From: Asterionella formosa
Lineage: Eukaryota
Reading direction: 5' to 3'
DNA length: 43,074 nucleotides
Assembly: GCA_002256025.1 (NCBI GenBank)
Contig: NKIB01014476.1
Coordinates: forward strand, 1-43,074
The position numbers and the translations under genes are program-made. Positions 1,499 to 43,074 of the stretch are shown one piece after another. Under the pieces are notes generated by a model. It did not search any database, was not told the DNA's origin, and worked only from the letters and a program-made list of their open reading frames with translations. Position 1 is the stretch's first letter; every line of letters begins with the position of its first letter.

Positions 1499-3060
1499 AT
1501 GGAAACACCGCAGAATGATGGAGGGTTTCACGAATCTCTACGAGCCCTACGTGAAATTCTGACATTGGATACACCCACCACAAACCTTTTGAAAGGAGAC
1601 CAATACGAGCATTTCAGATCCGAGATCAAGGCGCTAAATATAAATCTTAAAAGGGAGCAAGATGAGGTCAAACATCTGCAGACCCAGTTAGGACAAAGCA
1701 AAAATGAAATTGAACAACATCAACAGCTGAGATCGACTTTGGAAGAGGCATTTGATGCATTAAATAAGCACAAGGAAGCATTGGTTGCACAGACCAATGT
1801 TCTAAAACTAGAAAAGATAGCTGTCCAGAAGGAGCTACAGTCAACAGCAGAAGCTGCCGAATCTATGAAGGAAACTTTCGAGAAACAAATGGAAGATCTG
1901 CAAACGAAGCTCGTTCAAGCAACCAATGATCGAACAATCACAGTGGAAATGGTTGGTTCCATGGAGGCCAAATATTTGACTGCGGAAAAGAAAGTTGATG
2001 AGTTGTGCGTGCAAATTGAACGCATGAACCAAGAGATAAAAGATCAGAAAATTGGATTTGAAGCTGTGATATCCAGCCTAGAGTTCTCCAACAAGACTCT
2101 CGAGAGTGCAAGGACTGTTACGGAGCATCGGGTGAGTGCCACAGAAAGAAATAAGAAAATATTCTGTTTCCAGTTGTACTTACACAATATGCGCTGCAGT
2201 TGAAATCGGAAATGTCTCGATTGGAAGAAGAAATGCGAAGTATCGTTGCGAAGCTCGCGCAGGAATCCGACGAAAAACTCAAATGCAAGAAACAGTTAGA
2301 GGAAGCTGAAGAACGTGTCGAATCACTGAAATTAACTAGCGAGAATAGCGAAGGATTATTCGAAAAGGAGACCCAGCAAAAATTGAACGACACTCAGAGC
2401 CGACAAGAGGAACTGCAGCAGATACTAGATGAAGCTATTCAAGAAAAGGGTAGTGCAACGAGCGAACTCGAAAGCGGAGTTAATGATATGGCTAATAAGA
2501 TCGCCGAAATGAAGACGTTGCTCAATAATAAGGATATTTTCCTGCACGAGCTTCAATATGCACAAAAATTATCAAAGAAGGAGGAATCGGCGAATCAGTT
2601 GGTGCAACAGGCAAGAATCAAACTTCTCGAAGGCGATCTCGAAGATGCAAAAAATGAACTTGGACAGGTCGAAACGCAGTTTATGCTTTGTAGAGGCAGG
2701 CTCGCAGAGGTACGTGTCCTTGATATACGCTGTCCTAAGCATCACGATTTCATTATCTTATGTTTTTCCCTTTTACCCCTGCCTAAGGCGGAACGGGAAT
2801 TAGCTGCAACCGAGGCAACAATCAAGCCTCTTGAAGTGAAGCAACACCTTGATTCACCAGTAGCTCATATTCTGGAACATCATGACCTGGTCGATTCCAT
2901 TGATGCCAAAAGAGAGATTCACTCGGAGAATGTAGAGGGGACGAAAGATAGGAAGAGACCAGCAGAGGAGGAAGTGGACGAAGCCAGAGGAAAGGAAGAA
3001 ATGACTTCCTTGAAGGCTGAAATGATGGCAAAGAAGCGAGTAGGGCATTCGAAGGAATAA
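1499..3060 (+). CDS. Long coiled-coil protein of unknown function, 3 exons (introns 2132-2199 and 2710-2787); 5' end uncertain
   Basis: E/K/Q/L-rich heptad sequence. A 68-nt GTGAGT...CTGCAG intron joins ORFs 1499 and 2200 in frame. A 78-nt in-frame GTACGT...CCTAAG intron removes an out-of-character hydrophobic segment. Confidence 0.75.
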
Positions 3061-3265
3061 ACAAGTTCATTCCCGTATTAGCATTGTAACTACAATAGCT
3101 TGAGCACAAACATAATTTTCGAGTTCCACAGCGATGGTTAACACATTTCGCATATCATGTGCTTTTTTGCGAGGCGTCACGCAACCGGCAACGCTATAGA
3201 ACACCGACTAAAATTATCTTGTCTAAAGTACCTTACTCGTATGAACACAACAGTTTGTAAGCATA

Positions 3266-4492
3266 CTAATCGTACGACAAAAAGAATGTCCCATCATCAC
3301 CGAAATCTAAAAAGTTCAGATAATGATCATCGTCAAGGAGGGATTGAATGGAGTCATCTAAATCATGCGATATGCCTCCCCACCACATCCGTCCATTTCT
3401 GGCACGCAGAAACCATTCCCCTTTTGGACCCAGCGTTACACACACCACATCAGGTCTGCCGGCTCGATCAGTTAGTTTTTCTTGCAGTTCCTTCGGAATC
3501 CCTCGCCCCTGATATTCCCACGAGCCATCATCAAAAACCATGAAAAATGTATCGTATGTGGAGCCAAATGCAACAGATCGAGGCGCTTTTTTTTGCTGCT
3601 TGAGAACCTTGTCAATGCTCTTCGGTCCCCTCCAATCCCGGGAACCATCGAAGAAGGAAACAAAGTATCGATCACGGGTTCCGAGGGAAACGTATATCGG
3701 ACGAGAGGCTTTTTGGTTTGTTTTCAGTGCTTTCAATTTTTGATAGAGTGGTTTTGGGATATTCGGTGTGTAAGCCACTCCGCCGTTTCCGTCTAAAAAA
3801 CGTGGCATGAGAACATGATTCAAAATAGTGTGTTACACGTTAGCTGCATTCACACAATCAAACTTACACAAGAATACCGCACCCTTGGAGCACATTCCAA
3901 CGCCAATGACTTGTTTTCCCATAGACGAGATATCACTCAAACACTTCTCAACTTGTTGCATGACGTCGCTGGTAAATCTAAATTCAAACTCCATTCCTTC
4001 CTCGACACTCGAGTCTGACTCGTTCGCATTCTTTAAGTGTTTTGCCATCGCTTCACCTACCAAATGATTGACTTGCGCTTGAAGGGCCTCCTTCTCGCCC
4101 ATTAAGACACAAACCCCCACTTCCGCCAATTCCAACTTTCCAGACAAACTGCCTTGATCAATATCTGGCATGAGGGAAGGGTCAATCTTTGTCAACGACG
4201 GCGGATCTCGTAAACATTTTTCCACGGCTTCTACAGACGACGCATTCTTCCGAAAGATTTCTCTGACTTGCTCTCCCATAACTCGACAAGTGCCTATCGC
4301 TCCAGTGTCGAGGTAAATGTTGATTCTCGCTAGCTTGGCCTTCTCTTGTGATTCCAACCCAACCATAAACGAGAGCACATTTTCTCCGAAGGTGGCGACT
4401 TCTCGACAGCCAGGAATTCCTTCCACACAGGTGCGAACGGCATCGGGATCTAACTTTGGTATATTCTGCGTGCGATTCTGAAGCAAACTCAT
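3266..4492 (-). CDS. Hypothetical protein with C-terminal repeats (VSLG..D.YFV.F.DG..W type), 2 exons (intron 3793-3867)
   Basis: ATG at 4492 (MSLLQNR). A 75-nt GTAAGT...TTTTAG intron joins ORFs 3833-4507 and 3266-3823. Repeated units: YVSLGTRDRYF, SVAFGSTYDTFF, CVTLGPKGEWF, FLDFGDDGTFF. Confidence 0.8.
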
Positions 4493-14273: not shown

Positions 14274-17003
14274 TTATCCCAACGCAGTTTGCATCATTTT
14301 CGTCAATTGCTCAACACGAGCATTAGGGTCCTGCGTGCTGCTTCCACTGACTTTAATGGTGAGAATCAACAAAGCTTCAGAAGACTTGGTAAGGTTGGAC
14401 TGGATCAAAAACAAGTCACCAGCAGAGTCTTGAGCATATAAGAAAAACTTAAATTCTGAAGCGAGCTCACCACTTGCCATGGTCAAAACATTACACGCGG
14501 AGAGAGCGGATTCCACCTCAGCAGTAGACGAGGGGAGAGACCGTAGGGCTATCGTAGCCACAATGGAATCGGCATCAGATATAGCACCCCATTTAGCCTG
14601 ATAATCTGCACCTGTCATGGCGACGTTGGGTTGCAAATTCAGTGCCGTTGCCACAGGAGAGGTAGCTACGACCGGAGAAGGACCGAAGCCAAGCAAGTCC
14701 ATAAAGCCGCTTGCCGGAGCCGCTTCGGGAAGTGGAGCAGGGATGTAGACAGGAGTCGTTGGTGGAACCACAAATGTGGAATCCGTTCCAGGAGCCAACG
14801 GGTGTTCGGGGGGCATCCTGATTAGTTTCACTAGATGTTCGGAAGCAACAAACTCTTCTGCTTTCTTCTGGTATAGAGTGCTCAACGTATTGAATTCCTC
14901 CATCAAAGAAGTACGAAGTTCAGCATCGTCTTCCTCAGAAAAGTTTGTCAGACCCCCAATGAATGAATTAGTCTTCACAACAGCCTCGACCACCTTTGGA
15001 TCACTACTTTTCAATAGGCGGTAGTAGAGGAGAGCACGATCGTGTAGATCTTGTGAAGAAACATCGTCCGTCGCCTTGACCAAGAGTCGACCCAGCATTT
15101 TTTGAACTTCAGGTGGACGCAGAAAAAATACCTTCATCGTCGACGTCAACAATGCAATCTTGATGGTCGGGTCGGTAATATCGTCGTAGGTATCAATCAA
15201 TTTTTCCAGTGAATATGGAGCTTCACGGACAATATCCCCGCACTCACCCAACAGATAGATTATGCTAGCCTTCCCACTTGCCTCGTGAATGTACTTGAGT
15301 GATCTAGGCAGCGGAGGCGCGATGACGGACTTCAAGGCAGGATGTTTTCGCACCATCTGAGCCAAGGCAGTTGCTGCTTCGGAACAAACATGATCAATGT
15401 CCAGGTCCAACATATCAACCAACCGACGAGCAATCGATTGCTCACAGCCTGGTCCTCCTACATTCCGACAGGCGATCCGTGTCATGCTTCTGACCGCCAA
15501 ACGACTCAAAGTGACATCGGCATCAGCGACAGATTCTGCAAGCTCCGCAACAATGTCGGGAGCATTGTCTGGGTTCGCAAGTTTGGGCAAAATTTTTATT
15601 TTGAGGTACTTGATGTAAGTGGGCTCGTGATACTTGCAGTAAAACTGACGATATTCATCATCAAATACACTTGGGCACAATTCAACCAAGGCTTCGACAT
15701 TCTGCAAGAGACAGTACACCAACTCACTGGATCCAGATGCTACCAAGGTAATCAAGGGCGCCTTGACACGAGTAACGACTTGACGCTTCATATTTTCCAC
15801 ATCGACACTCGCTCCTTCTGCTAGACTTAAAAAGGCCCGAATGACGGCCATGACAGCGGCAGCATTGGAAGTTCGTAAAACAGGGTCCAACAAATTCATA
15901 ATTTGAAAGGCTTCATCGTCAGTCGCAGGAATGTACCGAGGAATCAAGTCCAAGATTTGCAAAATGCCGAATTCCGAGAATTCGTGAAGTCGATTCAAGA
16001 GATGAAGCATAATGGCCCGATTAATGGCCATGCCTCCGTTGGGGCTATTAGACATGACTTCATTCAAGACCAAAATACAGTTGGAGACCACAGATGCATC
16101 TGGATCCCGGAGCATGTCATACAAAATGTCGACAAAATTGCTTCGTTCAAACGCCTCTTGGTCGAGATCGAATAGTTTCAGAGTACCTATGACGCCCGTC
16201 TTGCGCACGTATGCATGGCCATCATGAAGCGACCGACCTAGCGGTTCACTGATATATTCTACCATTTGAGGCAATCGTAAACTGCATAGAGCCCGTAAAG
16301 CGAGACCTCGAACCATGGGATCATCATTTCCACAGTCTTTTTGGAGGGTATTGGTGCACATTTGAGCAAGGTCCGGGTGGGTTTTTGCGTAGTTGCAGAG
16401 ATATAGATAGACCATCTTCTTGATGACAAGATCCCTGGTTTCGATGGCCAGCATCATTTCTGTAAAGAGACGAGAAACATCAATACCTAGCGTCATGTAG
16501 GCAATCACCTTTTTAATAATTTCTCGCTTTCGCTGAGGATCGCGCTCGGTGGAAAAGTTGCGCAGGAGGGTGCGAAGTTCATTGACTTCTCCCTTGCGTG
16601 ATTCAGTAAAATAGGAGTCTGCAACAGCAGCCGCGGTAGCAGGGACGTTTGCGCTTCCGGGAGGGGCTCCATTTTGGGGAGGGTAGGAAGAAGGACCGGG
16701 ATAGGAAGTCATTGTGGAGGCAGTCGTTGTCTTTCCGGACAAGAATCTTTGAAATATGTTCTGTCTTCTATTTGGATCTTTATACTTCTGATAGCTATCA
16801 ACTTCGTCAGAGCTATGAAGCTGAAGAGTTGTCGACGACGAGTACGATAGATCGACGTCTCTTGGCCTTGCTGGATCCAACAACGGAGTGTTGTTTCGAG
16901 GACTCTCTTGAATAAGTGACGGACCTTCGCGCTGATCTGGTTTCGTTTGTCGACTTCCGTTATCACGTATTTCCGCCAGATCCCGAGACTTGCCGCCTTG
17001 CAT
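14274..17003 (-). CDS. AP4B1: Adaptor protein complex beta subunit, most likely AP-4 beta; start at 17003 or 16712
   Basis: Adaptin_N motifs KGEVNELR, KKVIAYMTLGIDVSRLF, KKMVYLYL, DPMVRGLALR, AYVRKT and DLHDRALLYYRLL. A short hinge is followed by a single appendage platform (DYQAKW), an architecture typical of beta-4. Confidence 0.9.
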   Translation of the reverse strand: MQGGKSRDLAEIRDNGSRQTKPDQREGPSLIQESPRNNTPLLDPARPRDVDLSYSSSTTLQLHSSDEVDSYQKYKDPNRRQNIFQRFLSGKTTTASTMTSYPGPSSYPPQNGAPPGSANVPATAAAVADSYFTESRKGEVNELRTLLRNFSTERDPQRKREIIKKVIAYMTLGIDVSRLFTEMMLAIETRDLVIKKMVYLYLCNYAKTHPDLAQMCTNTLQKDCGNDDPMVRGLALRALCSLRLPQMVEYISEPLGRSLHDGHAYVRKTGVIGTLKLFDLDQEAFERSNFVDILYDMLRDPDASVVSNCILVLNEVMSNSPNGGMAINRAIMLHLLNRLHEFSEFGILQILDLIPRYIPATDDEAFQIMNLLDPVLRTSNAAAVMAVIRAFLSLAEGASVDVENMKRQVVTRVKAPLITLVASGSSELVYCLLQNVEALVELCPSVFDDEYRQFYCKYHEPTYIKYLKIKILPKLANPDNAPDIVAELAESVADADVTLSRLAVRSMTRIACRNVGGPGCEQSIARRLVDMLDLDIDHVCSEAATALAQMVRKHPALKSVIAPPLPRSLKYIHEASGKASIIYLLGECGDIVREAPYSLEKLIDTYDDITDPTIKIALLTSTMKVFFLRPPEVQKMLGRLLVKATDDVSSQDLHDRALLYYRLLKSSDPKVVEAVVKTNSFIGGLTNFSEEDDAELRTSLMEEFNTLSTLYQKKAEEFVASEHLVKLIRMPPEHPLAPGTDSTFVVPPTTPVYIPAPLPEAAPASGFMDLLGFGPSPVVATSPVATALNLQPNVAMTGADYQAKWGAISDADSIVATIALRSLPSSTAEVESALSACNVLTMASGELASEFKFFLYAQDSAGDLFLIQSNLTKSSEALLILTIKVSGSSTQDPNARVEQLTKMMQTALG

Positions 17004-18299
17004 ATACTCTCTAACAGGCGAGCTATTCGTAGTCTTGCTTAGTAATTGCAAGAGCAACAGTCAACGAAACAGGTCACGAAGTTGCAATCAAAACGCTATG
17101 GGTAATGTGCAGCAGTAGGTTAGTGCAACTGGTATATTTGTAAGTAGCTATGCAAACAACAATGCCAACGCAAATTTTCTAACATGAGCAATTCTTCCAC
17201 GATCATCGAGAGGCAGTGCAATCTTCATTGCACCCGGAAATTGCTGCTTAAATAAGAAATAATACCAGTACTATGATATGTAGCACATACTGCATACAGT
17301 ACCACCAGCAGCAAGTTGCGGTAATTTTGCTGAAATGGACAACGTGACGCAGGACAGGCGCACAAAACGACAGAATACCGGTAGAGAACATCAACTCTCG
17401 CTTTGAACAGTTGTATCACAACTTGTTATTGACATAAATAATTATTTCGTCTCAACACGGAAATAGGTAGTTTTTCCACTTTGGCCAGAAAAGCCGAATT
17501 TTAGAGACTTCAGGAAATTCAACGCATTTCCTGAAATTCATGGGAATTTTACCCACCTAAAAATACTTATCTACCTGAAGCATCTGTCACCTGCATTTTC
17601 TCATGCAAGCTTTTTATGGGGATTCTACAGTAGGTTCACAAAAGTGAATTGTCTGGCACTGTAATCACTGATCATGATGCAACTATAGTTGAACAGAGGG
17701 AGTAGCGTACTATGGTGGTGTAAGTACTGGTGTTTAGTATATGTGTTCATGGAGAGGAGGAAGTGATTGATGATGTGATAAGGATTGCTGTTCTTGTTGT
17801 GCCAAGGCAAGAGTGTACATATGTGGGCCACTGGATGAGCACAAGAACAAATATATATGAACATACACATATCCCAAACCAGGGATCAGGGGTTATGGGG
17901 TACTCCACATTCATTTACTCTTTACTCTCTGTACTGGCACATGGCTTGGCAACCAGGGGGTGAGCAGCAGTGACAATAATCAAGGAAAGACAATATATAG
18001 AGGATATATAGTACTGTATTTAGGATGATTGTGTCATGACCACGATGCATAATGAAATACTAGGAGTACAGTCAAAACGACTCCACCATCAGGTACCAGT
18101 ACTCTATAGACTATACAGACATGAAAACAAAACAGAATAGTTCCCATACTTGATGTTGAAATTGCTAAGTGTGTCCCATCGTCACTGTTGCCGATTATTT
18201 TACCGTTATATATAGTTTTATAATGGTACCCGGTGGAGTCCATTCATAAAAATAAGCAAAGCAAATCAGCATGCAAAGGAGTTCAGGTTCATTACCTTA

Positions 18300-29161: not shown

Positions 29162-29555
29162 CAAAATGATTACCGGTATGTACCGGTATCTTGATGCAAT
29201 GTAATCCAAATCGACATTTCTTGTAGGGGCACGTACCGGTAGTATATTTGCTATACAAAATACAGTTTTGAGGCCTCCTGATGATGTCGAGTCAAAAAAT
29301 CGAACAAAGATTCGATGTTTATTATTAATACCGGTATATAAATAATCACTTTTTACCGGTAATAACTGGTTAAGGCATCAAGGTATCGGTAGTACCAGGT
29401 ATGGTACCAGGTACTCTACCTGGTCCTCATCATCAGTGTTCTTAGTATCTTGCTTATTTAGGCTGTTGTTGCAATCTTTACTGCATCTTAGAGGCTACTG
29501 GTATCCTTGTGTAATAATGTAACACAGCTTCATATATGCCCATATCATCAGCGAA

Positions 29556-34385: not shown

Positions 34386-35234
34386 TGGCTTGAGTCCTAT
34401 GAGCAAACCACCAAAGAATCGTAAGTGGAAGGAAGATGAGGCTTCTACTGAGCGTGCATAATCGTGTGTCGTTATGTTAAAAATAAATAAATGAAGAAAC
34501 ATCAAAAGACGACAATAAATTGTTGTACAATCATCATTTTCAACGGATGTATACTTCCCATCTATAATGCAGTCCTCATGTTGACTGTACTATGATTTAT
34601 CGATATGTGAAAGTATTCTGTGATTCTTGATGCGTTGAGATTTTTTGCTCGCTAGCCCAGTTGCCTTTGGCGCGGTTAGATATACTTCTCGTACACCGGG
34701 TATACTGCTCTGTAAGTATACCGGTAGTAAGTAGCTGGCGACGAACTTCGAATTTTCATCTCAAGATATAAGCAAGATTGTCCGGCGATGTTCGCGCAGC
34801 CTTAAAGTCCCTATGTAAATATGCATGATACATAGAATGTACTGAGGACAATGTCGCTATGACATATGTATGAAGTTATACGACCGGCATTTACATACGA
34901 TCAATTTCTATACATATATGGTGGTTGGAATACTGTACAAGGTTCCTGAAATATTCCGAAAATAAAAAAATGGTGTGTGTATCAAGCCAAGGAGTGGTGG
35001 TATGTCTGTGTTTTGGGCATTTCGTTGCAAGGAATTCATCTCATACATACTGATGCTATCAGCATTACCAACAAGCTTAGAAGGGTAGACTACCGGTATA
35101 TCAATAGAAAGTAGAAAGGATTGAACATTTCGTCTCTCCAAGAGAAAATTAACTCATCTTCATGAATAACCAGGGTAAGAAAACCTAGATGAAAATCTAA
35201 TTACTGGTAAAGAAGCAAGGATACAGAATGCCAC

Positions 35235-40331: not shown

Positions 40332-41154
40332 ATTTGTGATACATCAACATGTTGGCGTTTGTTTAATAAAAACATTGTAATTCTTGATCATAGATGCTAT
40401 GTATGTACCGGTACCCTGGTACGGTACCAGGTACCAGCGTTCATACACAAGAGTCAACAGTCTGCCGGTATATAGAGTCTTCTATAGCCATTACCGGTAG
40501 CAGGTACTCCGCGTAGAAAACGCAAACAGGGTTTCTTTGAAGGACGTGGATCAAGAAGGATTGCAACTACCGGCATACATGAACAGAGGGAGTACAACAT
40601 AAAAACTGTAAGCCACAGCTATGACGACTTTTAAATTGTAACAACTAAACAGAGTTAATGCACAGTTTGAACTTAGTTTGCAAGATACGTTAATTGTTGT
40701 CACAAAGGAGTTGTTCAGATTTGTATAGCGAGTAAATACTTACATACTTGTATCGTTGTATTGTTTAAGTTGTTAAATACTTATTATGGCCCAAAGGTTG
40801 CTATCAACGCGAAATTGCAAAAAATGGATATTTTCATTTCTACTCTGTTGAGCTGGCATCGCCTTTTCTATAGGTGTATATGTAAAAGAAGAAGAATTTT
40901 CTTATAGGACTAATTTAGTATAATTAAGGTTGTGACCCTGCAGTTACACATTGTGAGGTCTGTTTCTTTGTAAAGATATTTTTATGATGTATGTCAATCT
41001 ATACAGTACATACAATTAAATAAAATAGTTAAAGGAAAAACTAGCATTCACCAATACAACCACTTTGCATATGCTTAGATTCAGTCATTGCTCGACTTAG
41101 GGGTATGATCTACATTTGGATAGTATGGTACTAAGGACCTCATTTCCTGACAAT

Positions 41155-41240
41155 AGTGGCAGTTTTCCCTCTTGGATTTGTAACTATCAAAAAAAGGGGA
41201 TACGAAGCTTTTTAAAAAACCAAGAGGGATAACTGCCACT
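41155..41240. repeat. Inverted repeat, 21-bp arms
   Basis: AGTGGCAGTTTTCCCTCTTGG (41155-41175) pairs with CCAAGAGGGATAACTGCCACT (41220-41240), 20/21. Confidence 0.85.
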
Positions 41241-41835
41241 TCTCTCCAGAAGTTACCTCCTGAGGACGTTATAGGGTACATGACTATCTATTTTATTCTT
41301 CATGAAACCCCGTAGTTGTAGAGCAATCCTCCTCCAAAAATTGACCTGATCGGCTTTTCAACAACAGTTGCCAAAATATTGGAATCGGAATTTGTGCGTG
41401 CAAAAAGGTTCTCATAGACTTAGAGTCTTGCATAGGTATTCTTGCTGAATAATTCTCTGTCCGAAAAGACTCCAGGGTAACCTCCCGTGTCACTACACAT
41501 ATTCTGATTGGTTCAATTGAATTTATGTTTCCTGAAATTTCCTGAAAGTCATAGTCATTTCCTGAAATTCATAGTCATATGCTTTGTATTCTCGTTTCTG
41601 CAATTAAAAGGATTCCGCTATTTATTTCGCTGAATCATGCTATGAATTGAAGATGTCCTTTAGTACTATTTATTATAAAATGTCTCGCTGTCTGGTAACA
41701 TGTTGTCCGTTTCAGGAATATGACCGCAGCTTGCAGGTACAGCAACCAGATGCGGTCATTTTGCTTAAATAAACAATTTGATATGGGATAAAGACAGCTG
41801 AATCCTTAGTTCAGCAAAATTTCTGCAACTTGCTG

Positions 41836-41869
41836 CTACCTCGAGCTAGGGGTTCAAATCCAGCAACCT
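41836..41869. repeat. Orphan right terminus of the 27944-29161 TIR family
   Basis: 32/34 identical to 29128-29161 and followed by TGA. Confidence 0.85.
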
Positions 41870-42208
41870 TGATGATTGATAATTTAGCATTATAGAAATT
41901 TACTTAAGAGAGCTTGGAATTGAAAGTCAGCCTATCTTGTCCGGAGGCATGGGACGAGCCATTGGGAGTGAATCGAAACAGAATAAATTCGCATAAAACG
42001 TGCGCTACTACCAATAGGCCTTCTAGGTACCAGCACCTCTGGTCCAACATAGACCTACCGGTATGTAGTCCATGATCGTATTTTACTGCTACATAGGTAC
42101 TGGTAATTCTGCATCATATTACGTAACAAACAGGTAGACTACCGGGACTTTTCCCAAAACGGGATGAAACTGGAAAAACTATTCGTAAATTCAACTGCCC
42201 ATTGGCAT

Positions 42209-42279
42209 TTGCACCACCGTTGCACCACAATTGCACCACCAATTGCACCACTTTACTTAGAGTAACCTGAATTGCACCA
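42209..42279 (+). repeat. Five TTGCACCA direct repeats
   Basis: Copies start at 42209, 42220, 42231, 42243 and 42272. Confidence 0.9.
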
Positions 42280-42425
42280 GACTATATCAAATCCGTGCAA
42301 CTATATAAATATACATAACTGTATAGGAATACATGTGATCCTAAAAATTACAGCCCGCCAACATTTGATGAATAATTTGTTCACTTAACTTGCCAATTTC
42401 GCATCCATATACTTGAATTGTCAGA

Positions 42426-43074
42426 ATGAGTTAGAAGAATACACGCGGTGAGACTAAAAAGCTTGCCAATCTACCTCGGGATGTCTTATATGCCAAGGAT
42501 ACAACAGCAGATATTGAAGATAAAGTAGCCCAAGGAATTCTGAATGCTTTGGACAAATTGAAAAAGACATCTGTTGACCGACGCTTGGCAAAATTGACTG
42601 GTACAAGTGCACTCCGGTATCGTACAGAGCTAAGCTATGAGGTTCACTTTCGTGGTCTTACAAAATTCTTCAAGTTGATTGGTGATTATGAGTCACTGTT
42701 GATGCTTAGGGACAAATGTCCTGCAAACTGTCCATCGATGAAGGTAGAATCCCTTGTAATGTATGTATGGTGGAAATACAATGCACCAAGTATGACATTA
42801 TTGGATCTTGGTGGAAAGGAAGTTTACGATGTCATGGGGCATCTTATAAAATGTCGTGGGGATTGGAATGCCCCTGAAAAGCGTAAGGGATTTCGTACGG
42901 CAGTATGGTGCATTCATAAGGCTCACAATCAAACTGGTAACTACATACAGGCTTGTCAAGACTGTCGTGATATGCCCTTTGATGAGTGGTATAAGGGATG
43001 CAGTACCCACAAGGGTCATCCTGCTCTACTTAGATCTGGTAATCCTGCATACGATTCGGTCTTTACAGATTGTT
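42426..43074 (+). mobile_element. Partial ORF (>215 codons, runs off the window), putative Crypton-like tyrosine-recombinase transposon protein N-terminus
   Basis: MS*KNTRGE...TELSYEVHFRGLTKFFKLIGDYESLLML...CPSM...DVMGHLIKCRGDWNAP...FRTAVWCIH...YIQACQDC...GCSTH...LLRSGNPAYDS. The frame is open from 42435 to the end. Catalytic R-H-R-Y residues are not within the window. Confidence 0.5.

Follow-up and report, generated by a model that had tools for sequence, protein, structure and literature searches.

A probable Crypton-type DNA element, encoding a recombinase with a CCCH cluster, at the end of a diatom-like nuclear contig

The recombinase gene at the window end

The stretch of DNA analysed here, contig NKIB01014476.1, is 43,074 nucleotides (nt) long and is referred to as the window. 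Its right end carries an open frame, which is probably the 5' third of a recombinase gene belonging to a 2.6-kb, many-copy DNA element of the Crypton type, located in nuclear DNA of a diatom-like alga. The features located within the window are collected in Table 1, where P0001 indicates a 690-residue protein related to the frame and L001 a metagenome contig containing the element.

Table 1. Position of the element, its gene, the candidate recombination sites and the host gene located by protein match within the window
Feature	Position	Strand	Basis
Left end of element, 13-nt core GGTAGACTACCGG with 5-1-5 palindrome GGTAG-A-CTACC	42133..42145	+	start of homology to L001, three different left sequences, depth rise
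Element 5' non-coding part, 293 nt; TATA-like stretch about 110-120 nt before ATG	42133..42425	+	L001 alignment; TATA-like by reading
Five direct TTGCACCA repeats, spacing 11, 11, 12 and 29 nt	42209..42279	+	pattern count against shuffles
Recombinase gene, codons 1-216 of 690 (predicted N-terminal core-binding domain), cut by window end	42426..43073	+	translation, P0001 match, fragment model
TAG at codon 3, nonsense change private to the window copy; others AAG (Lys)	42432..42434	+	P0001, L001, contig depths
CxxC-x11-CxxH cluster (C177, C180, C192, H195), presumed zinc knuckle in core-binding domain	42954..43010	+	conservation
GNP motif; G205 invariant, P207 in at least 90% of relatives	43038..43046	+	42-relative alignment
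Second exact GGTAGACTACCGG, followed by TAT, intergenic	35084..35096	+	pattern search
Exact junction-type core CATAGACCTACYGG, followed by TAT; 72 nt (last base) to 85 nt (first base) left of element	42048..42061	+	sole match in window
Beta-adaptin gene	14274..17057	-	protein match

Translation of the frame gives ATG-AGT-TAG, followed by 213 stop-free codons up to the last full codon. It corresponds to codons 1-216 of P0001, with identical residues at 215 of 216 positions (99.5% over 216), the sole difference being a lysine in P0001 where the window has the stop. The frame is missing from the default list of open reading frames (ORFs) because it runs off the window; a listing in which open ends are allowed gives it from the TTG at 42549 only. 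An earlier annotation made from the letters of the window, the original prediction, had reported an unlisted frame of more than 210 codons with TAG as codon 3, and a set of motifs within it. Frame and stop were found as described, and each of the motifs is present in the translation, namely TELSYEVHFRGLTKFF, FRTAVWCIH, SGNP and, ahead of the latter, CQDC-x11-CSTH.

Relatives were collected by scanning the 213-residue window fragment with HMMER against 1.84 billion representatives of clusters built at 50% identity. The scan matched 562 representatives at E <= 0.001, 243 at E <= 1e-10 and 10 at E <= 1e-30; together with the 215/216 match to P0001, this indicates that the frame did not arise by chance. 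The cluster to which P0001 belongs has 143 members. Full-length members of the family measure about 650-750 residues. One full-length relative, P0002 (699 residues), is 66% identical to the window fragment and 58% to P0001 over the whole length. An alignment, A1, was built from 42 proteins of roughly 600-750 residues, chosen among P0001, P0002 and the 150 relatives listed by the scan; proteins that are shorter and evidently incomplete were set aside, and identity to P0001 ranges from 25 to 58%.

Twelve positions are invariant in A1 (W147, C177, C180, C192, H195, G205, G305, K306, F346, R417, H418 and Y427), while R271, H392, R395 and others are kept in at least 90% of the proteins. The four metal ligands are thus unvaried in 42 of 42 full-length relatives, and the CCCH cluster is also kept in at least 90% of the 47 N-terminal sequences of a second alignment, A2. 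Tyrosine recombinases share the catalytic set R...K...H-x-x-R...H...Y. In P0001 and L001 this set lies downstream of the window fragment, as R271...K306...H392-x-x-R395...H418...Y427, and the catalytic R, K, H-x-x-R, H/W and Y are conserved across the 42 relatives; the search for R...HxxR...Y in the missing part of the gene, which the original prediction had proposed as a check, was therefore answered positively. A single named relative was found, annotated as 'hypothetical protein' in the chytrid Boothiomyces (25% identity, E 1.6e-32), which keeps the CCCH cluster, R271 and K306 and has a gap over the H-x-x-R stretch; the family was found in named databases only under that designation.

A model of P0001 was built with AlphaFold on A1, reaching a mean predicted local distance difference test score (pLDDT) of 89.3 and a predicted template modelling score (pTM) of 0.73. 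Foldseek comparison against PDB gave 38 matches at E <= 0.001, headed by Cre-DNA complexes (3crx_A, E 1e-6, probability 1.0) and including XerH, XerA, the Tn1549 integrase, an integron integrase and Ndc10. The Foldseek candidates were realigned with VIA-align, by which residues 49-429 of the model fit residues 19-326 of Cre 1pvp_B with Z 19.5 and a root mean square deviation (rmsd) of 3.7 over 287 of 318 residues. Other Z values are 15.0 for XerA, 14.6 for lambda Int, 14.2 for Tn1549 Int and 11.3 for Flp, with Ndc10 lower in the list. Sequence identity to Cre is 12-13% only. The ends of the Cre alignment (429 on 326, 417 on 314) imply an offset of 103, which places Y427, H418, R395 and H392 on Cre positions 324, 315, 292 and 289; these we take to be Tyr, Trp, Arg and His of Cre. 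The two domains of the Cre/lambda Int fold, core-binding and catalytic, are both found, and the model describes P0001 as a Cre-like two-domain clamp, in which the predicted N-terminal domain holds the CCCH cluster and the catalytic domain holds R271, K306, H392, R395, H418 and Y427. A further domain of about 250 residues (about 445-690) follows the catalytic one and is confidently helical in the model. Within it, residues 600-690 (L001 about 2106-2378) show a conserved Cys/His pattern of their own, with C657 and F669 kept in at least 90% of the 42 relatives and C685 invariant in a 7-sequence alignment; a second metal site or a DNA-binding module may be located here.

The fragment present in the window was also modelled separately, using its 213 residues on A2 (pLDDT 90.4, pTM 0.86), and compared with 48,161 chains by a structure search independent of Foldseek. 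Rank 1 was Cre 1kbu_A (Z 7.9, rmsd 2.9, 93 residues, model 45-213 against Cre 18-116), followed by the DNA-binding domain of Ndc10 (3sqi_A, second, Z 6.3), an integron integrase, XerA, XerD, the ALOG structure 8p5q_A (Z 5.5, 83 residues) and lambda Int. Named recombinase or integrase N-terminal domains, or known derivatives of them, account for 24 of the 26 top rows; ranks 17 and 25 bear no functional name and rank 27 is unrelated. This predicted identification draws its weight from how consistent the list is and from the match of the full-length model. Both models thus point to the core-binding layout proposed by the original prediction.

The same prediction had placed a metal-binding insert within this domain, and the evidence agrees. 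As 93 of the 169 spanned fragment residues align to Cre, about 75 residues are extra; in the model they include a strand-rich stretch (121-139) and the CCCH stretch (174-192), both located between long helices. Because the cluster sits where only these 93 of 169 residues align, its position fits an insertion in the core-binding domain, the exact point of which is model-derived.

Sequence models largely miss the kinship with recombinases. No Pfam match was obtained with the window fragment, and a phmmer search gave nothing significant. Of all Pfam families, NDC10_II alone is reached by several members of the 42-protein set: seven match it, only P0089 exceeding the cut-off (28.0 bits against 26.3). 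In a second scan, over 47 relatives of up to 1178 residues, six match NDC10_II at E <= 0.01, the only other families found at this threshold being SecD_1st and TAF10. The nearest protein-atlas clusters are hypothetical proteins of diatoms and oomycetes, while the next ones carry NDC10_II, DUF3435, DUF3504 and ALOG plus integrase, and serve as leads only. This is a recombinase family without a Pfam model.

The repeated unit and its candidate recombination sites

In a scan of metagenome contigs with P0001, 136 stretches matched, and two contigs, L001 and L002, encode a relative. L001 (3730 bp) contains the complete 690-codon gene at 309-2381, without introns. Its positions 18-1131 recur at 2616-3730 with 99.64% identity (3 mismatches and 1 gap), which defines a period of 2598 bp; the units are arranged head to tail, and L001 matches itself only as tandem units. 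The same junction, of 3' end to 5' start, is spanned by L002 (1026 bp), which derives from a different sample. No second long ORF and no replication gene were found in the 2598-bp unit, which carries one gene, without reverse transcriptase and apparently without long terminal repeats or terminal inverted repeats; as expected of a Crypton, a tyrosine recombinase is encoded and no reverse transcriptase appears among the Pfam matches of 47 relatives. Further copies within the window were not detected by tblastn with P0001, P0002 and P0005, and a 31-nt junction pattern gave 0 matches in viral contigs. A separate observation concerns the stretch 1-278 of L002, where eukaryotic large-subunit ribosomal RNA (rRNA; Rfam RF02543, 168 bits, model 1565-1840) is joined to the last 561 nt of the element; the sharp break falls at L002 248, within the recombinase gene, and reflects either a chimera of the assembly or a copy in ribosomal DNA that is truncated on its 5' side.

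Window and L001 are 98.2% identical over 942 nt, and the homology starts at 42133 or 42135. Four of the 17 differences fall in the 293 non-coding nt and 13 in the 649 coding nt, where 5 are synonymous and 8 are not, including the stop and one N. Three different sequences precede the start of the element: the window flank, 15-17 unrelated nt with which L001 begins, and, at the junction, the 3' terminus of the unit before. The two flanked left ends read GG-TAGACTACCGG-GAC, while both junctions read CA-TAGACCTACTGG-GAC.

The abundance of the element was evaluated in public sequencing runs, examined as Logan contigs. Of 24 runs listed, 20 hold part of 41200-43074 and 10 hold at least half of its words, from 11 studies; by their labels, most are metagenomes from fresh water, lakes or rivers, and four belong to a single organism. 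Contigs from four runs (X1, X2, X7 and X15, the last being an RNA library) were aligned to 41000-43074, and depths were summed over all matching contigs. For X1, flank contigs (41892-42145 or part) have depth 770-895 and 0 differences to the window, while the summed depth of the element is 1.7e5 to 3.8e5 per 70-nt bin from 42260 on, reaching 5.7e5 over the TTGCACCA repeats; here the element is covered by many variant contigs, 90-99% alike. The corresponding values are 93.8 (1 difference) for the flank and 1129-1472 for the element in X2, and 2.8 and 28.7 in X7. Across 42120-42135, contig depth thus increases by a factor of about 10 or more in three DNA runs, each belonging to a different study, and in all three the element is many-fold more abundant than its flank.

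One contig from X1 (record 2) and one from X2 (record 19) extend from the flank some 10-12 nt into the element, so the junction seen in the window exists in two studies. In X7, the boundary contig (depth 26.7) has the head-to-tail junction as its loose end, and most copies in that organism are preceded by another copy. Copies at different sites may be reflected in the two different left flanks, one of them of 15-17 nt, and in the depth rise of the summed contigs. A single-copy, syntenic host gene, an outcome named beforehand by the original prediction as evidence against it, is not what was found: the gene belongs to a 2.6-kb unit with one ORF, copies of which follow one another head to tail, and contig depth goes up where this unit begins.

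The same contigs bear on the stop at codon 3. Position 3 of P0001 is K, and L001 reads AAG there. At 42432, base A accounts for 264198 of 264756 depth units in X1, 1520.7 of 1520.7 in X2, 28.7 of 28.7 in X7 and 81.6 of 81.6 in X15. The remaining units in X1, about 558, are comparable in magnitude to the depth of a single copy and compatible with one stop-bearing copy. Because almost all other copies read AAG, the TAG is private to the window copy and derives from AAG (Lys); the origin from CAG suggested in the original prediction does not hold.

Several short sequences in and around the element are candidates for a role in recombination. TTGCACCA occurs 12 times in the window against 2.29 expected, a number reached in 0 of 100 shuffles. 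L001 keeps the TTGCACCA cluster and has two more TGCACCAC directly left of the junction, so that, where units are joined, the core has repeats to its left and to its right; they are candidates for accessory recombinase-binding sites or promoter elements. Seven more exact copies of TTGCACCA lie outside the element, at 2600, 20757, 21813, 23216, 24132, 30946 and 36639, and the motif may also be a host regulatory word.

When up to 2 mismatches are allowed, the core of the left end, GGTAGACTACCGG, matches 4 times in the window. The expected number is 0.25, a count of 4 is attained in 0 of 100 shuffles, and the palindromic site of the element itself accounts for two of these matches. The exact copy at 35084 may be an unoccupied target or an excision footprint. 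The left-end core itself is read as a hybrid (attL-like) recombination site, and the core at 42048 may, with some uncertainty, be an attR-like site or a footprint. Under a tentative scheme, the junction would be arranged as P-core-P', the 35084 site as B-core-B', the left end as B-core-P' and the 42048 site as P-core-B'.

Two further possibilities found no support. One is that the left neighbour of the element is a decayed element end; it shows no similarity to the 3' end of L001 beyond 18 nt around 42048, and the Smith-Waterman score of the window left flank against this end is 26, compared with a shuffle mean of 18.9 and a maximum of 30. Nor is the junction special as a hairpin, its single-stranded DNA fold having a z of 0.01. 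In addition, a 2-mismatch relative of the 13-nt core, GGTAGAGTACCTG, is located at 29408-29420 on the minus strand, just upstream of a MatE transporter gene, and may be due to chance.

Apart from the element, the window is nuclear DNA of an ordinary eukaryotic kind, including, besides the beta-adaptin and MatE transporter genes, one for dehydroquinase/shikimate dehydrogenase. Relatives of the adaptin that bear an organism name share 60-64% identity with it and come almost entirely from diatoms (Nitzschia, Amphora, Chaetoceros, Cyclotella, Stephanocyclus, Pseudo-nitzschia and Bacillariaceae); the two rows with other labels are an Alexandrium_tamarense scaffold (63%) and one whose name begins with 'Tiarin'. 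Judged by these relatives, the host is diatom-like and hence a stramenopile, in agreement with the occurrence of Cryptons in stramenopiles to which the original prediction had appealed. Left of the single-copy flank, the stretch 41000-41900 is highly repeated in all four runs (summed depth up to 8.6e5 in X1), with opposite-strand joints near 41112-41251 and a 56-nt inverted repeat at 41128-41267. No similarity of this stretch to L001 was found, and it looks like another, unrelated repeat or small transposon.

Interpretation and alternatives

Fold, catalytic set, CCCH cluster and repeated unit together support the proposal that the window ends in the 5' part of a poorly described family of tyrosine recombinase elements with a metal-binding insert. 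If the element moves as postulated in Goodwin's Crypton model, the recombinase would bind the core TAGAC(C)TACYGG, both at the unit junction and at a near-identical 13-nt chromosomal site; Y427 would cut, and strands would be exchanged through a Holliday junction. A circular copy could in this way enter the chromosome or a resident copy, the latter event generating head-to-tail arrays. The TTGCACCA repeats, phased and lying to either side of the core, would act as accessory binding sites or as promoter elements of the gene. The first unit of the window, lacking a full-length protein, would depend on recombinase supplied by intact copies.

A broader view, which we put forward only tentatively and regard as more doubtful than not, is that of an unnamed, widespread Crypton-like clade, comprising the 562 clusters at 50% identity, extending from diatom-like algae to a chytrid fungus and marked by the CCCH knuckle of the DNA-binding domain. 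Its members would be site-specific integrating mini-plasmids, in which a 2.6-kb circle, its crossover core surrounded by phased repeat arrays, enters a 13-nt chromosomal site or resident copies and thereby generates head-to-tail arrays.

A number of results weigh against the assignment to a mobile Crypton-type element. At the level of sequence models, Pfam gave only a chance-level Ribosomal_L11 row for P0001 and P0002; neither protein matches PF00589 (Phage_integrase), to which just 1 of the 42 relatives gives a match, with E 0.029 and short of the curated score, and the A1 profile finds Cre among PDB sequences at E 2.3 only. The miss of PF00589 reflects the limited reach of the sequence model rather than the fold itself. 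Foldseek on the fragment model alone found nothing at E <= 0.001, and the Z values of the fragment, 7.9 included, are middling by the tool's own note. At the level of the element, no right end with host flank, no empty-site allele and no transposition event were seen among the sequences examined; the shared core of left end and junction, with its 13-nt copy at 35084, may correspond to the short-repeat ends expected of a Crypton. The second left flank measures only 15-17 nt and comes from a metagenome assembly, and the core at 42048 is not significant, since 28 of 100 shuffles give at least 1 match at up to 2 mismatches. Summed contig depths are not copy numbers, and head-to-tail copies could stem from tandem amplification without transposition. 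Finally, X15 yields a 939-nt element contig of depth 81.6 against 3.5-8.9 for flank contigs; this is no sign of transcription, because the ratio is about the same as in the DNA runs.

The best surviving alternative, although an unlikely one, is that the unit exists mainly as a 2.6-kb nuclear plasmid-like circle, comparable to the yeast 2-micron plasmid with Flp, the window representing an occasional integrated copy and the TTGCACCA repeats the iterons of an origin or partition site. In its favour, the 3' end is joined to the 5' start in contigs of two separate samples, the depth of the X7 junction contig (26.7) approaches that of the element body (28.7), the TTGCACCA repeats lie about one helical turn apart, and the P0001 model aligns to Flp (Z 11.3). 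However, L001 reads from non-element flank through a left end of the integrated type into a second unit, as in a chromosomal array, and its repeats differ at 3 positions and 1 gap, which excludes a simple assembly overlap of one circle. The unit is moreover devoid of a replication gene, and short contigs do not separate a circle from an array.

Still less probable is a satellite-like tandem repeat, immobile and derived by unequal crossing-over from one dead Crypton insertion. Such an origin would agree with the head-to-tail order, with the junction depth near body depth in X7 and with the stop at codon 3 of the window copy. That stop, however, is private, with nearly all X1 depth units reading A, and the L001 copy has its complete 690-codon frame. 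The left end is seen beside two different flanks, the many X1 variant contigs point to diverged copies and not to a single uniform array, and the 42 relatives, diverged as they are, retain the catalytic residues.

A host gene domesticated from a recombinase, in the manner of Ndc10 or the DUF3504 genes, or alternatively a recombinase encoded by a DIRS-like retrotransposon, would explain the weak NDC10_II matches of 7 of 42 relatives and the DUF3504 and ALOG plus integrase clusters among the atlas neighbours, but is highly improbable, given that domesticated forms have usually lost catalytic residues (according to the sections of PMC3212892 considered here) while all six are conserved in this family, that many copies with a sharp boundary are found, and that the 2598-bp unit has a single ORF and Pfam finds nothing but NDC10_II, SecD_1st and TAF10 in 47 relatives.

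Comparison with known systems

The element is best compared with Cryptons, which are among the least understood transposons of eukaryotes: their ends are hard to define, and activity was first observed directly in 2023, in Chlamydomonas (PMC9977147, in the parts considered). The present case combines a compact unit, a clear left end, a candidate 13-nt target and a circle-or-array junction with repeat arrays around the crossover site and a confident enzyme model containing an invariant metal cluster, a combination that opens both the recombination sites and the function of the zinc knuckle to direct tests. As the 562-cluster family has no Pfam model, building one would improve the annotation of transposons in diatoms and other protists. 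A literature search for this recombinase family found no description, returning only overviews of Cryptons and one-line mentions in diatom genome papers; a Repbase consensus may exist.

CryptonS elements, described in oomycetes and Phaeodactylum, encode only a recombinase, with a conserved C-terminal region, measure 2.5-5.9 kb and occur in 1-32 copies, mostly with TATGG ends (Kojima and Jurka 2011, PMC3212892, in the sections considered). The element described here resembles them in its stramenopile host, in encoding only a recombinase, without a GCR1_C domain, and in its length of 2.6 kb. Within the same sections, CryptonS elements are characterized by low to moderate copy numbers and by short-repeat ends rather than inverted or long terminal repeats, and no metal cluster is described for them. 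A comparison by eye sets the CryptonS motifs GRASD, RVKT, HSFRRGG and RGxW...Y of the published alignment against LRFDDF, FGKSD, HMFRRTG and ARH...Y here. By the same by-eye reading, the catalytic motifs are partly closer to the CryptonA and CryptonI rows, with CPV after the Lys hairpin, H-x-F-R-R-T, and His instead of Trp nine residues before Tyr. The TATGG end is absent from the gene strand, while its reverse complement CCATA spans the head-to-tail junction. The element is probably of Crypton type, its relation to the named groups (S, F, A or I) having been judged only by eye on the published alignment.

In CryptonF-1_cRei of Chlamydomonas, the terminal CACCG enters CAYCG targets, in support of Goodwin's model, and copy number rises in spite of clean excisions (Lopez-Cortegano et al. 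2023, PMC9977147, parts considered). The two systems have in common a short end motif and a near-identical target, for which the candidates here are the core TAGAC(C)TACYGG and the GGTAGACTACCGG site beside it. The apparent target of the present element, 13 nt, is longer, and head-to-tail arrays are not mentioned for CryptonF-1_cRei in those parts of the paper. Activity of CryptonF-1_cRei was observed directly, whereas no movement of the element reported here was seen.

Among characterized enzymes, Cre of phage P1 is the best structural match over both domains, with the same spacing of H-x-x-R, H/W and Y; the protein described here differs by the roughly 75 extra core-binding residues that include the CCCH cluster and by the C-terminal domain of about 250 residues, which Cre lacks. 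For ALOG and DIRS1-like recombinases, a domain of this kind has been reported to carry a zinc ribbon as an insert (Iyer and Aravind 2012, PMC3537659, in the sections considered). There the insert consists of HxxxC and CxC between helices 2 and 3, while here CxxC-x11-CxxH follows the third long helix of the model; the HxxxC/CxC features of the ALOG-type N-terminal domain are not found, and PF04852 (ALOG_dom) is matched by 0 of 42 relatives at E <= 0.1. The ALOG/DIRS1-like elements are retrotransposons. Ndc10/Cbf2, a kinetochore protein derived from Cryptons and represented by NDC10_II, is related to the family by the Pfam matches of 7 of 42 relatives and by the second rank of 3sqi_A in the fragment search. 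According to the sections of PMC3212892 considered here, Ndc10 has lost catalysis, whereas the catalytic set of the present family is intact.

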